The notes: a model not told the origin generated them from the letters alone. A stretch of 64,000 bases of DNA from Escherichia coli (GCF_003334405.1 NZ_QOWM01000012.1); one strand, 5' to 3'. Counted from the first letter of the stretch, positions 25,842-61,525 are shown. Program-made: numbers and translations.

Positions 25842-25917
25842 ATGGTGCCGATAATAGGAGTCGAACCTACGACCTTCGCATTACGAATGCGCTGCTCTAC
25901 CAACTGAGCTATATCGG
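25842..25917 (-). tRNA. thrW: tRNA-Thr (anticodon CGU)
   Basis: Minus-strand read GCCGATATAGCTCAGTTGGTAGAGCAGCGCATTCGTAATGCGAAGGTCGTAGGTTCGACTCCTATTATCGGCACCA; coordinates +/-1. Confidence 0.9.
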
Positions 25918-26032
25918 CCCTGAAAGGACATGTTCACGAACGTGAATCACGGTGGACAAGGTTAAAACTAACCGGGCGATGCGTCAATGGCCTTGTGAAT
26001 CAAATGGCTACTTTTGCATCACCCGGTTTTAT

Positions 26033-34546: not shown

Positions 34547-34851
34547 TTATACTCGTCATACTTCAAGTTGCATGTACTGCGACTGCGTTCGTTCACCCCA
34601 GTCACTTACTTATGTAAGCTCCTGGCGATTCACTCGCTTGTCGCCTTCCTGCAACTCGAATTATTTAGAGTATATAAATATAAAAATCAGGAAATGGCAG
34701 ACGAATCCAGGGCAAGAAAAAAAGAATTAATCCTGGAAAGGTCTGCAAAGAGTCATTGATAAAGGATTTGTCATGATTTACCTCCTTGCAGTTTGTGGAA
34801 TCAGAAAACGCGCACATACCAGGCGGGCGTTATTTTCATTGCAAGCTGGAT

Positions 34852-43484: not shown

Positions 43485-43590
43485 CTGCCTGATGCGCTGC
43501 GCTTATCAGGCCTACAAGGTTTCTGCAATATATTGAATTTGCAATATTTTGTAGGCCGGATAAGGCGTTCACGCCGCATCCGGCAAGTCC
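43485..43590. repeat. REP elements between lafB and lafA
   Basis: cctgatgcgctgcgcttatcaggcctac ... gtaggccggataaggcgttcacgccgcatccggcaag. Confidence 0.7.
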
Positions 43591-49274: not shown

Positions 49275-49500
<226 letters not shown>

Positions 49501-56226: not shown

Positions 56227-56307
56227 TTCCTGCGTCACTCCTGCTTCAATCCGCATACGCTAAGCAATCGCCGTGCCATTTTTTAAGTGACTGATGAGAA
56301 AGGGTTT

Positions 56308-57416: not shown

Positions 57417-57845
57417 GTGAGTATCCGGTTACAACAGGTGAAGGCGTTGTTGCAGGGAATTCGTGACGACGACGCGCTGTATGATTCCCTGCGCGAACGT
57501 CTCCAGCGCCAGCGGATCTGCATGATTCGCCGCGCCAGCGAGGAGTTGCTGGCGGTAAACGATGAGATTACGCATCACTATGAGCAGTTACACAGCCATA
57601 GCCATCAGCGGCATAGCCTGCTGAAAATGCTCGGTGTTAGCGTAAATCGTGACGGTCTGGCGCAGGTGTTTGCCTGGCTTCCGGCGGTACAAAAAGCGGC
57701 AGCACAACAATTGTGGCAACACCTTGAGCAAAAAGCGGAACGCTGCAAAGCCTACAACGATAAAAACGGCGAGTTGTTGATTCGCCAGTATGAATTTATT
57801 CAGTCGTTTTTAGGCAGCGAAGCAGATTTTCTGTATCAGGAATAA
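57417..57845 (+). CDS. lfgN: Export chaperone, FlgN-like
   Basis: 142-aa helical ORF immediately after the flgM homolog. Confidence 0.65.
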   Translation: MSIRLQQVKALLQGIRDDDALYDSLRERLQRQRICMIRRASEELLAVNDEITHHYEQLHSHSHQRHSLLKMLGVSVNRDGLAQVFAWLPAVQKAAAQQLWQHLEQKAERCKAYNDKNGELLIRQYEFIQSFLGSEADFLYQE

Positions 57846-57933
57846 CGACAATACCTTCCCCCATCGCGGAAACGGATTTTCCGCCTGATTGCCAATCCCT
57901 TGTTTTTGACTACAAAAAATCCCGGCACGCTTA

Positions 57934-58902
57934 TTGCACATCCTGCACAGCATTAAAGACTGGAAGCCACCTATGAGTTTTATTGAATGTTACGAACCGG
58001 AATACGTGCGCAATTTTATGACGCAATACCCCGGTTCGCCTTTATACGTCCGCAAGGTGTGGAAAAACGAGATTCGCCTGAGCCTGATGCTGACAGAGCC
58101 AGAAAGCTGCGAAGCGATGCTCAACGATGTCAGGGCCTTTGATTTACAGCTCACCTACCGTCCTGTGGAAGAAAATGCCGCAGAGCTTTCCGCGCGCGAT
58201 GCGATAGTAAACCAGGTGATTTTGAGTACCCTCACGCTCCGTGATTTAACACCAGAACTGTCATTGTATGCCGTCGGTATCCTGCTCTCCCGCGCCAGTA
58301 AAATGCCGGGCAGAGACGGAGATATTCTTGCCCGTTTGACGACGCTGCCGCAGGCGCTGGCCGATCATGCGAAAAAAGGCATCCTACAGGCACAGTTCGC
58401 CCAGCTGCCGCCCGTGCCACAGCTGGTGCGTCACCTGGCCACGTTACTCGGGAGTTTTACGTTTGACTGGTCGATTTTGCCGGAAAGCCCGCGCAAAACT
58501 TCGCTGCCGTTGCAGATGCCTTTGCTGACGCTGCATGACGCTAACAGCGAAGCCCTGTTACAACAGCAGCTTCAGACGCAGTGGCAAACCACCTGGCAAC
58601 AGCATTTTGCCACCGCGCCCTGGATGATGCGTAACTGGCTGATTTACCGCGTTTACCACGATGTGATTGGGCAGACTGACGGGGCGGATTATTTCCCGCT
58701 GGTGTGCGATTTTTATCTCCTCCGCACGTTAATCAGTTTATGGACGCTGGATGGTTCTTCGCTGCGGCAGGAGGATATTTTCGCCCTCTTTGCCATGTTT
58801 GAACGCTGGCGAGCCAGTGAAAATGCGCTGTTGGTTCGCCAGCAAATTCAGTCGTTATGTGCCGCCGACCCGCTGCTTTCAGCGTTTTCGCTGCTAACGT
58901 GA
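57934..58902 (+). CDS. Hypothetical protein embedded in Flag-2
   Basis: 322-aa ORF with no recognised motif; precedes the glycosyltransferase. Confidence 0.5.
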   Translation: MHILHSIKDWKPPMSFIECYEPEYVRNFMTQYPGSPLYVRKVWKNEIRLSLMLTEPESCEAMLNDVRAFDLQLTYRPVEENAAELSARDAIVNQVILSTLTLRDLTPELSLYAVGILLSRASKMPGRDGDILARLTTLPQALADHAKKGILQAQFAQLPPVPQLVRHLATLLGSFTFDWSILPESPRKTSLPLQMPLLTLHDANSEALLQQQLQTQWQTTWQQHFATAPWMMRNWLIYRVYHDVIGQTDGADYFPLVCDFYLLRTLISLWTLDGSSLRQEDIFALFAMFERWRASENALLVRQQIQSLCAADPLLSAFSLLT

Positions 58903-58904
58903 GT

Positions 58905-59045
58905 CGCTCTGTGCGCGCTTTGCCCCTCACCCTAACCCTCTCCCCAAAGGGGCGAGGGGACCGATCGAGCACAGTGTTAAAATCGGCGCTGATTTTCTCC
59001 CTCTCCCTGTGGGAGAGGGTTGGGGTGAGGGCATCAGCGCGCACA
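58905..59045. repeat. Long imperfect palindromic repeat element, distinct from REP
   Basis: gcccctcaccctaaccctctccccaaaggggcgagggg ... ctccctctccctgtgggagagggttggggtgagggc. Confidence 0.5.
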
Positions 59046-61525
59046 TTCATCACATTCACCCATTAACTCACCCAAACACCATGCCAACACCAACCATCAT
59101 CAAAACACTCAACACCCACCGCGAAAAACCGTTTGTCAGCGTCGTCACGCCAACCTGGAACCGCGGCGCATTCCTGCCGTACCTGCTCTATATGTACCGC
59201 TATCAGGATTACCCGGCAGACCGCCGCGAACTCATCATCCTCGACGATTCCCCACAAAGCCATCAACACATCATCGACCGCCTGACCAATGGCACGCCGG
59301 AAGCCTTTAACATCCGCTACATCCATCACCCGGAAAAACTGCCGCTGGGCAAAAAACGCAACATGCTCAACGAACTGGCGCGCGGCGAATACATCCTCTG
59401 CATGGACGATGACGACTACTACCCGGCAGATAAAATCTCTTACACCATCGCCATGATGCAAAAACACCGGGCGCTCATCTCCGGCTCCGATCAGATCCCC
59501 ATCTGGTACAGCCACATCAACCGCATCTTTCAAAGCCGCAGCTTTGGCCCGCATAACATCCTCAACGGCACCTTTTGCTATCACCGTAACTACCTGAAAA
59601 AGCACCGTTACGACGATGATTGCAATTTAGGCGAAGAGAAACGTTTCACCGACAATTTCAGCGTAAACCCGCTGCAACTGCCCGGCGAGCGCACGATTCT
59701 GTGTATCTCGCATAGTCAAAACACCTTTGATAAAGATTTTATTCTCGGGGCCAGCACGCCAGTAAACGCGGCGCTTACGGATATCGTCCGCGATCCGCTG
59801 CTGCGCAATGCTTATCTGAGTCTGCATAACGCCACTCATCACCAGGCGATCAACCATCAGGCGATCGATCAGATCGTTCTGCTGAATCTGGATAAACGCC
59901 CGGATCGCTTACAACAGATCCGTGAAGAACTGGCATTGCTGCATATTCCACCTGAGAAGATCACCCGCCTTGCCGCCAGTGAAGATGAAAACGGTCAACG
60001 GGGCCGCCGTCAGTCGCACTTACAGGCGCTGCGCCTGGCGCAACAGCACGGCTGGCAAAACTACCTGCTGCTGGAAGATGACGCGGTTATTCTCAAGCAG
60101 GAGAAACATATTCAGGTACTGAACACGCTGCTGGCGAGCCTGGCGAAAATTCCCTGGCAGGTGATGATCCTCGGTGGCGAAATTTCGCAGGGAACGATGC
60201 TAAAAAGTTTGCCGGGGCTGGTGCACGCGCGGGACTGCCGCAAAGTGTGCGCGTATCTGGTGAACAGCCGCTACTACCCGCAACTGGCGCAGCAGATGAG
60301 CAACGATGAGCACTCGCTGGAAGCCTGCTGGCAGCCGCTGCTACGCGCCGACAAATGGCTGGCCTGTTACCCGAGCCTTTGCTACCAGCGACCGGGTTTT
60401 AGTGATATCGAGAAAAAAACGACTGATAATATTGCTCACTATTTCAATAAGTTACCCGTAGCCACCAAGCCATCTACATTACCCATCGCCGATACCATCG
60501 GCTTTTTTATGGAAACCTCATTCCACTACACGCTGTACCGCCCAATCATCACCGCTCTACAGGCGCAGGGGCAGAGCTGCACACTAGTGATCAATGACCG
60601 CGTGTTTAAACCGTTTCTTGATGAGATGCTGGAAACACTGAAAAACATCGACGATCCGCAGCTTAAAGGTATGCGTCTGTCAGAAATGCAGACACATGGT
60701 CAGCGGGTGAAATGCCTGGTCAGCCCCTACCACACGCCTGCGCTCAATGGCCTGGCGGCGGTGAACATCCGCGCTATGTACGGCTTAGCCAAAGAGACGT
60801 GGAACCACGCCGACTGGAATCGTTTTTACCAAAGCATTTTGTGTTATAGCCACTACAGTCAGCAGGCGCTGGCGCATTTCGGCAGCGCAAAAGTGGTCGG
60901 CAACCCGCGCTTCGACGCCTGGCATAACGGCACGTTCGATCGCGCGTTGCCGGAAAACATCCAATCAGATTACCGTAAACCTACGGTGCTCTATGCCCCA
61001 ACGTTTAGCGCATTAAGCTCCCTGCCCCACTGGGCTGAAAAATTGGGCCGCTTGAGCGGTGATGTGAACCTGATTTGCAAACTGCACCATGGCACCTGCT
61101 CACGCCCGGAAGAAGCAGCATCGCTGGCCCTGGTGCGCAGGCATTTAAAACAGCGCACCGACTCCGCCCGCCACACGCTGGCGCTGCTGGCAAAAGCCGA
61201 TTACGTGCTGACCGATAACAGCGGGTTTATTTTCGATGCTATCCACGTTGATAAGCGGGTGATCCTGCTCGACTTTCCGGGCATGAATGATTTGCTCGAC
61301 GGTGAGAAAAGTTATTCCACGGCAGAGAGCGCCGACCAGCGAATCCGCGAAATATTGCCGGTTGCTCATGATGTTGCAGAACTGCGTTATTTGTTGTCAG
61401 AGGCGTTTGACTGGGGGTCGGTGCAGGCGCGGCTTACGGAGATTCGCCATCACTATTGCGATGCGTTTATGGATGGCAAGGCGGGAGAACGGGCGGCGAT
61501 TGTGATTGTGGAGGCGCTGGGGTAA
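59009..61525 (+). CDS. Multidomain glycosyltransferase: N-terminal GT2-like, central GT25-like, C-terminal TagF-like CDP-glycerol glycerophosphotransferase
   Basis: 838-aa ORF; VSVVTPTWNR...ILDDS and CMDDDDYY (GT-A DxD motifs); LLNLDKRPDR (GT25-like); VLYAPTF and YVLTDNSGFIFDAIH (TagF-like). Likely start MPTPTII at ~59081. Confidence 0.75.
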   Translation: MGEGWGEGISAHIHHIHPLTHPNTMPTPTIIKTLNTHREKPFVSVVTPTWNRGAFLPYLLYMYRYQDYPADRRELIILDDSPQSHQHIIDRLTNGTPEAFNIRYIHHPEKLPLGKKRNMLNELARGEYILCMDDDDYYPADKISYTIAMMQKHRALISGSDQIPIWYSHINRIFQSRSFGPHNILNGTFCYHRNYLKKHRYDDDCNLGEEKRFTDNFSVNPLQLPGERTILCISHSQNTFDKDFILGASTPVNAALTDIVRDPLLRNAYLSLHNATHHQAINHQAIDQIVLLNLDKRPDRLQQIREELALLHIPPEKITRLAASEDENGQRGRRQSHLQALRLAQQHGWQNYLLLEDDAVILKQEKHIQVLNTLLASLAKIPWQVMILGGEISQGTMLKSLPGLVHARDCRKVCAYLVNSRYYPQLAQQMSNDEHSLEACWQPLLRADKWLACYPSLCYQRPGFSDIEKKTTDNIAHYFNKLPVATKPSTLPIADTIGFFMETSFHYTLYRPIITALQAQGQSCTLVINDRVFKPFLDEMLETLKNIDDPQLKGMRLSEMQTHGQRVKCLVSPYHTPALNGLAAVNIRAMYGLAKETWNHADWNRFYQSILCYSHYSQQALAHFGSAKVVGNPRFDAWHNGTFDRALPENIQSDYRKPTVLYAPTFSALSSLPHWAEKLGRLSGDVNLICKLHHGTCSRPEEAASLALVRRHLKQRTDSARHTLALLAKADYVLTDNSGFIFDAIHVDKRVILLDFPGMNDLLDGEKSYSTAESADQRIREILPVAHDVAELRYLLSEAFDWGSVQARLTEIRHHYCDAFMDGKAGERAAIVIVEALG

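Follow-up and report, generated by a model that had tools for sequence, protein, structure and literature searches.

The window analysed here is a 64,000-nt stretch of Escherichia coli DNA, and the element described below lies in variable region 1 of the E. coli Flag-2 (lateral flagella) locus. The genes were found in the order flgA, flgM and flgN homologues, a 309-aa protein, a glycosyltransferase, a cytidylyltransferase, and fliJ, fliI and fliH homologues, and the local DNA is 100% identical to that of many E. coli genomes, including ATCC 8739 (NC_010468.1). Variable region 1 is known to encode LafV-type lysine methylases and glycosyltransferases, which are thought to modify flagellin (PMC6993521). 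The element is wholly intergenic, lying between the stop codon of the LafV-like gene (58902), which is 8 nt 5′ of it, and the ATG of the glycosyltransferase gene (59081), which is 36 nt 3′ of it. It consists of two units of the BoxC repeat family, also named PIT and TMECO, and its parts and the flanking genes are as follows:

57973-58902, + strand: gene for a LafV-like protein of Flag-2 variable region 1, 309 aa, annotated in RefSeq as lysine-N-methylase or hypothetical protein (RefSeq on identical DNA; PMC6993521)
58911-59044, no strand: the whole element, two BoxC/TMECO units inverted head to head, plus linker and GC-rich outer ends (inverted repeat, folds, homology to the phnL-phnK copy)
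58911-58922, no strand: left outer flank, GTGCGCGCTTTG, which base-pairs with the flank on the right (conserved at phnL-phnK and phnP-yjdP)
58923-58958, - strand: BoxC/PIT/TMECO unit of type A with one mismatched triplet, CCCTCGCCCCTTTGGGGAGAGGGTTAGGGTGAGGGG on the - strand (published pattern, identity to K-12 units, TMECO 119)
58959-58998, no strand: 40-nt linker, GACCGATCGAGCACAGTGTTAAAATCGGCGCTGATTTTCT, joining the hairpin ends of both units (homology among paralogues)
58999-59032, + strand: BoxC/PIT/TMECO unit of type B lineage, CCCTCTCCCTGTGGGAGAGGGTTGGGGTGAGGGC (published pattern, TMECO 120, allele comparison)
59033-59044, no strand: right outer flank, ATCAGCGCGCAC (conserved in the phnL-phnK copy and beside the B unit at K-12 hrpB-mrcB)
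59081-61525, + strand: glycosyltransferase gene, 814 aa in RefSeq (ORF list, RefSeq start, allele alignment)

A long imperfect palindrome immediately upstream of the glycosyltransferase gene had been proposed in a sequence-only reading of the window, and its existence was borne out by both repeat search and folding. The search returned inverted-repeat arms at 58910-58944 and 59011-59045, each of 35 nt, 86% complementary and 66 nt apart; the two strings quoted in that reading were located at 58921-58944 and 59011-59032. Pairing was predicted to extend inward from the arms across most of the element. The whole quasi-palindrome, GTGCGCGC...GCGCGCAC, spans 134 bp. Homology to a paralogue between phnL and phnK begins at GTGCGCGC and stops at GCGCGCAC, and the limits of the element were therefore set at 58911 and 59044; the range given previously, 58905-59081, is longer by 6 nt on the left and 37 nt on the right.

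The predicted folds are exceptionally stable for this composition. The + strand RNA of a 161-nt stretch folds at -93.4 kcal/mol, compared with -55.4 ± 4.4 kcal/mol for shuffled sequences (z = -8.6; none of 200 shuffles folded as well), and the - strand RNA gave z = -7.5. With DNA parameters, the + strand folds at -48.1 kcal/mol (z = -8.45). As RNA, the + strand hairpin has a predicted stability of -93 to -97 kcal/mol, and in a 216-nt RNA fold, the start codon at 59081 was predicted to be unpaired. Rfam scans, including one of the whole window, returned nothing at the gathering threshold at this site. The matches below the threshold were to plant and animal miRNA precursors (best 34.4 bits, against a threshold of 90) and were rejected as generic matches to long hairpins.

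TMECO is the same motif as BoxC and as the PIT elements described by Hoyne and Maher (Holder et al. 2015, PMC4666352). PIT stands for potential intrastrand triplex, and the family has been treated by Bergler et al. 1992, Hoyne et al. 2000, and Holder et al. 2015 (PMC4666352); in Petrillo et al. 2008, BoxC is among the known E. coli repeats, with a size of ~50-56 bp and 22-32 copies. The published TMECO consensus, CCCTCNCCCN3-6GGGNGAGGGN3GGGNGAGGG (PMC4666352), was searched as 5′-CCCTCNCCC N3-6 GGGNGAGGG N3 GGGNGAGGG-3′, and exactly two matches were found in the window, at 58924-58958 (-) and 58999-59031 (+), where shuffles gave a chance expectation of 0.00. The left unit has exactly the sequence of K-12 TMECO 7, 11, and 15, which is type “A mm” in Table 1 of PMC4666352. 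The right unit shares its first loop and last base with type B, and differs from K-12 TMECO 20 by one base, with TTG instead of TCG in loop 2; comparison of alleles showed TCG at this position in other Flag-2 alleles.

Both units were found in the published record. Supplementary Table S8 of Holder et al. 2015 (PMC4666352) lists TMECO 119 at NC_010468 3694841-3694806 and TMECO 120 at NC_010468 3694882-3694915, which, by coordinate offset, map onto positions 58923-58958 and 58999-59032 of the window. Because these two entries are the two units, the element is already catalogued: the family has been described since 1992 and this very site appears in a published table. A 20-mer from the left arm also has a zero-mismatch match between fabI and ycjD in K-12, and BoxC was originally reported from the fabI (envM) region (Bergler et al. 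1992, as cited by a later paper). The original BoxC was sought downstream of K-12 fabI, where none was found; the copy lies upstream, between fabI and ycjD.

The window element thus shares with the BoxC/PIT/TMECO family the succession of C-rich block, loop, G-rich block, 3-nt loop, and second G-rich block, the intergenic position, the presence in multiple copies in E. coli, the inverted pairing of an A with a B unit, and a published site. It differs in loop 2 of the B-type unit, which is TTG rather than the published CCG or TCG and adds pairing to the long hairpin, and in its position within the accessory Flag-2 locus, on account of which the site is absent from the K-12 list. Oligonucleotides of each TMECO type, including A mm, were shown by CD and NMR to form a stable intrastrand purine-motif triplex in vitro, and the triplex was undetected in vivo by DMS footprinting; the genes neighbouring TMECOs showed no functional bias (Holder et al. 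2015, PMC4666352).

A GC-rich hairpin of this strength, directly 5′ of a gene, could point to a transcription attenuator or intrinsic terminator that would limit read-through into the glycosyltransferase gene, and an attenuator was among the roles put forward in the sequence-only reading. This explanation is, however, very improbable. Intrinsic terminators end in a run of T residues, and the main hairpin is followed by none on either strand: the + strand continues with ATTCATCACATTC and the - strand with AGAGCGACTCACG. A weak terminator-like pattern is present in the linker, where a stem at 58972-58991 is followed by ATTTTCT, but this stem has only 7 pairs, 3 of them G-C, and such patterns were not clearly above chance in this region (4 found, 1.9 expected). 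No leader peptide and no convincing alternative pairing were seen. The one pairing found with the start region, 20 nt at 75%, falls well short of the main hairpin in strength, and the fold leaves the start codon itself open. No sigma-70-like promoter was found in 57800-59400, and no sigma-28-like site was found near the element. The published tests of the family point the same way: as relayed by Holder et al. (PMC4666352), Hoyne and Maher (2002) detected neither promoter nor terminator activity in PIT elements, and RNA polymerase was unaffected by them. The same account states that they block DNA polymerase in vitro, without effect in vivo.

The paired arrangement of the two units has counterparts in K-12. 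In K-12, ten of the 23 TMECOs occur in five inverted pairs, every one of which combines one A with one B unit (PMC4666352), and the window pair, with one type A mm and one type B-lineage unit in inverted orientation, agrees with this published pairing. Four of the five K-12 pairs are +/-, with the third, G-rich blocks pointing inward and 16-27 nt between the units, and a conserved 27-nt linker is common to three of these four. The remaining pair, at lldD-trmL, is -/+ like the window element, with the hairpin ends inward and 59 nt between the units.

Copies of the entire pair were found elsewhere. By megablast, near-identical copies of the linker were found at the Flag-2 site only, and the linker was initially taken to be single-copy; this was revised when a more sensitive blastn search recovered diverged paralogues of the whole pair. 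The phnL-phnK copy of strain 600468 aligns in one blastn alignment over all 134 bp at 86.6% identity, linker included, and further whole-pair paralogues lie at phnP-yjdP and yiiM-cpxA, so that copies of the whole pair are known at four or more loci. The linker has homologues at phnL-phnK and phnP-yjdP, and more distant ones at yiiM-cpxA and lldD-trmL. Relative to transcription, the element at the phn site is oriented opposite to that in the window.

With two unit subtypes, alternating orientation and conserved linkers, the arrangement resembles the REP/BIME mosaic in its design, but not in its sequence, which is unrelated. Repeats of both kinds are short, rich in GC, palindromic and intergenic, and often lie between co-directional genes, and the phnL-phnK spot is occupied by one or the other in different strains. 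They differ in that the BoxC unit has three blocks and is triplex-capable, whereas the REP unit is a simple stem-loop, and, unlike for REP/BIME, we know of no transposase, gyrase site or IHF site for BoxC. The proposal that the palindrome is distinct from REP was upheld: inspection of the site against the REP consensus and the REP pair of K-12 phnL-phnK revealed no resemblance.

A genome-wide search for other copies, suggested earlier as a check, returned many. The family was present in 5,400 of 5,426 complete E. coli genomes, at 78,725 places, almost all of them chromosomal; per genome, the median was 16 places and the maximum 30. Published TMECO counts are 2 in CFT073, 20 in ATCC 8739, and 29 in strain 55989, with 143 in Enterobacter asburiae and none in Salmonella (PMC4666352). 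This part of Flag-2 is carried by about 1,276 genomes, and the pair is present in about 739 of them. In about 525 genomes of the ST131 type, including EC958, an unrelated 46-bp spacer with a small hairpin stands in place of the pair, and both genes are kept; 521 of these 525 spacers are at least 99% identical to that of EC958. The EC958 allele was considered as an empty site and rejected, as its intergenic sequence is simply different, with neither insertion ends nor a target duplication that could be defined. Strain YZMc3-1 has an inverted copy of the element: the linker of this copy aligns with the window linker in reverse complement (score 43) and not in the forward direction (score 16), and both of its units are without part of a block.

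At phnL-phnK, the pair is present in 546 genomes, and nearly all of the others sampled match the flanks only (56% of the query). In K-12, repeats that we take, from the REP consensus, to be a two-REP BIME occupy the position of the BoxC pair; the central part of the spacer does not match that pair there or, apparently, in most other genomes. Alignment of the Flag-2 alleles revealed no compensatory changes. In the E2863 allele, two outer-stem changes had looked compensatory, but their positions proved to be out of register.

Holder et al. 2015 tied TMECO sites to unusual local variability, and reported frequent loss of palindromic pairs or their reduction to simple hairpins (PMC4666352). The present, absent, and inverted states observed at the Flag-2 site and the variation at phnL-phnK fit this claim, although TMECOs are tied to instability by correlation. 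To what is published, the present analysis makes three modest additions: paralogues of the whole pair that share a homologous linker, a phnL-phnK site at which the pair alternates with a BIME, and a Flag-2 allele with the element inverted. Together they offer a concrete start on how BoxC elements spread and on what, if anything, they do.

The earlier suggestion of a mobile intergenic repeat stood in its first part, that of a dispersed intergenic repeat (a BoxC pair, whose family occupies a median of 16 places per genome), while mobility is plausible only. That the element was moved between intergenic sites by some enzyme is possible, if on the unlikely side. The same ends and a homologous linker recur in whole-pair copies at unrelated loci, presence and absence differ among strains at the Flag-2 and phn sites, and copy number varies widely between lineages, all of which would favour a moving unit. 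However, no target-site duplication was found at either locus, where the flanks are GTCGCTCT and ATTCATCA (Flag-2) and GGGGAGCG and GGTGTTGC (phn), and no clean empty site was seen, the alternative alleles carrying other sequence rather than a precise gap. Many units are single or stand in the opposite, +/- pairing with a different conserved linker, to which a BIME-like mosaic is better suited than a fixed transposon. TMECOs showed no association with transposons, phages or plasmids in the study of Holder et al. (PMC4666352).

Like MITEs, the element measures ~130 bp, has terminal inverted repeats, occurs at several loci and varies in presence among strains, but it differs from them in having no target-site duplication or parent insertion sequence, and the alternative alleles compared carry other sequence instead of a clean gap. 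To our knowledge, no mobilising enzyme has been described for BoxC. The ERIC/IRU repeat (127 bp) is similar in size, and is likewise an imperfect, intergenic palindrome with tens of copies per genome. It differs in sequence: with up to 3 mismatches allowed, the ERIC core was matched in the window only at 34590-34611 (-), and not at the element.

If both genes are read as one transcript, the element would lie between two cistrons, and a role in RNA becomes conceivable. A sigma-54-like site, CGGCACGCTTATTGC, with one mismatch was found at 57923-57937, 36 nt before the start of the LafV-like gene, and its position hints that the two genes may be co-transcribed. Such matches are not enriched in the window (10 found, 7.4 expected). 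On this basis, the 134-nt hairpin could be a cis-acting RNA element, serving as a 3′ exonuclease barrier or RNase III substrate, so that stability and dosage would no longer be linked between the two cistrons, an effect that REP/BIME have in some operons. REP/BIME elements can stabilise upstream mRNA, and at phnL-phnK, the BoxC pair takes the intercistronic position held in K-12 by the REP/BIME. The genes are co-directional with no promoter-like site between them, the sigma-54-like site lies upstream of the first gene only, and the predicted hairpin is very stable.

These points notwithstanding, an RNA role of this kind is unlikely. About 525 genomes keep both genes without the element, which in the YZMc3-1 allele is inverted and eroded, and at phn has the opposite orientation relative to transcription; no compensatory changes were seen among the alleles. 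The sigma-54-like match is not above chance, and in the published tests of PIT elements, as known from the account in Holder et al., neither an effect on RNA polymerase nor terminator activity was detected. The attenuator or RNA-stability role proposed in the sequence-only reading is accordingly left unsupported, both by the element itself (no T-run, no sigma-70-like promoter, an unpaired start codon) and by its absence, inversion or reversed orientation in other alleles and loci.

A broader proposal would join the two ideas, with the head-to-head pair acting both as a discrete mobile palindromic unit, which competes with REP/BIME for intercistronic niches such as phnL-phnK, and as a transcribed RNA hairpin that uncouples the flanking cistrons. 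We regard this combination as decidedly improbable. Were it true, the hairpin at the present site would tune the ratio of flagellin methylase to glycosyltransferase.

The element is a head-to-head BoxC pair, and it probably resides as a non-coding passenger repeat in the gap between the LafV-like and glycosyltransferase genes of Flag-2 variable region 1. One type A unit and one type B-derived unit, joined by a conserved linker, together make up the 134-bp quasi-palindrome, the main effect of which would be on DNA. When the DNA is single-stranded or supercoiled, the units may fold back on themselves and the pair may form a hairpin or cruciform, and such folding could render the site prone to deletion, inversion or replacement. 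No dedicated control of the glycosyltransferase gene would be exerted. If the genes are co-transcribed, a very stable hairpin would stand between the cistrons with the start codon free, and at most the decay or processing of the mRNA might be affected. On the most likely account, the element is a passenger repeat that chiefly makes the local DNA unstable, and there is no evidence that it regulates the glycosyltransferase gene. As such, it would flag a place within Flag-2 variable region 1 that is prone to rearrangement.

The passenger repeat also has a bearing on annotation. The longest ORF of the glycosyltransferase opens inside the repeat, at GTG 59009, and the overlap of the element with the 5′ end of this ORF, noticed in the sequence-only reading, was thus confirmed, as was the preference of that reading for a start near 59081. 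In all four alleles examined, one of which is without the element, the RefSeq start is the ATG equivalent to 59081. The stretch 59009-59080 is a spurious extension of the ORF into the repeat, since the element-less allele keeps the same ATG. The BoxC pair accounts for this 5′ extension, and likewise for spurious ORFs of 69 aa and 108 aa that cross the repeat.

The BoxC pair was also found outside the Flag-2 region, at the phnL-phnK intercistronic spot of the phn operon, where it is present in 546 genomes. In K-12, and apparently in most other genomes, a two-REP BIME occupies this spot. The K-12 repeats are taken to be REP by comparison with the REP consensus. The two alleles lie in the same intergenic region, and their flanks are identical right to the junctions:
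L009 (E. coli 600468) 2501-2634, BoxC pair between phnL and phnK
L012 (K-12) 1397-1506, two-REP BIME between phnL and phnK

Allelic variation was likewise seen in the spacer between lafV and the glycosyltransferase gene of Flag-2, at the site orthologous to that in the window:
L010 (E. coli YZMc3-1) 1612-1726, inverted element
This element has the opposite orientation to that of the window, and part of a block is missing from both of its BoxC units, so that simple hairpins remain. The BoxC pair is also missing from the ST131-type Flag-2 allele (EC958, L003). The copy number of BoxC/TMECO appears to be lineage-specific. Two TMECO copies are listed for each of CFT073, ABU 83972, and APEC O1, and 20-29 for ATCC 8739, BL21, and strain 55989 (PMC4666352 supplement).

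The linker of the window's BoxC pair contains a terminator-like pattern:
58972-58991, small terminator-like hairpin followed by ATTTTCT
The hairpin is weak, with seven pairs of which three are G-C; the frequency of such patterns does not clearly exceed chance expectation. Downstream of the pair, the glycosyltransferase leader and first codons (59046-59118) are C/A-rich and nearly devoid of G, and no Shine-Dalgarno-like sequence precedes the ATG in this leader. The leader sequence CTCACCCAAAC (59067) is a repeat of CTCACCCTAAC, which lies at 58926 in the left BoxC unit, and weak pairing of CTCACCCAAAC with the right BoxC unit is possible. Two open reading frames run through the repeat:
58857-59066, plus strand, 69 aa
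58733-59059, minus strand, 108 aa
These frames, which encode peptides such as LTLTLSPKGRGD and carry no RefSeq annotation, are by-products of the BoxC repeat sequence.

Two sigma-54-like sites were located near flagellar genes, and such matches are not enriched across the whole window:
57923-57937, plus strand, CGGCACGCTTATTGC, one mismatch, followed after 36 nt by the LafV-like gene
56264-56278, minus strand, TGGCACGGCGATTGC, exact consensus, where the flgA homologue begins
The latter site faces a basal-body gene transcribed divergently from the flgA homologue.

Elsewhere in the window, one further intergenic match, which probably marks an ERIC element, and three Rfam matches above the gathering threshold were recorded:
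34590-34611, minus strand, ERIC/IRU core match with one mismatch, in another intergenic region
49347-49424, minus strand, naRNA4 (CssrE)
43508-43550, minus strand, ES036 (CssrF)
25846-25918, minus strand, tRNA
Around the BoxC element, the window is 100% identical to ATCC 8739 (L008). Despite this local identity, the tRNA of the window, counted from the BoxC element, comes 528 bp earlier than that of L008 (26374-26449); therefore, the window is from a strain other than ATCC 8739 or carries an upstream indel.
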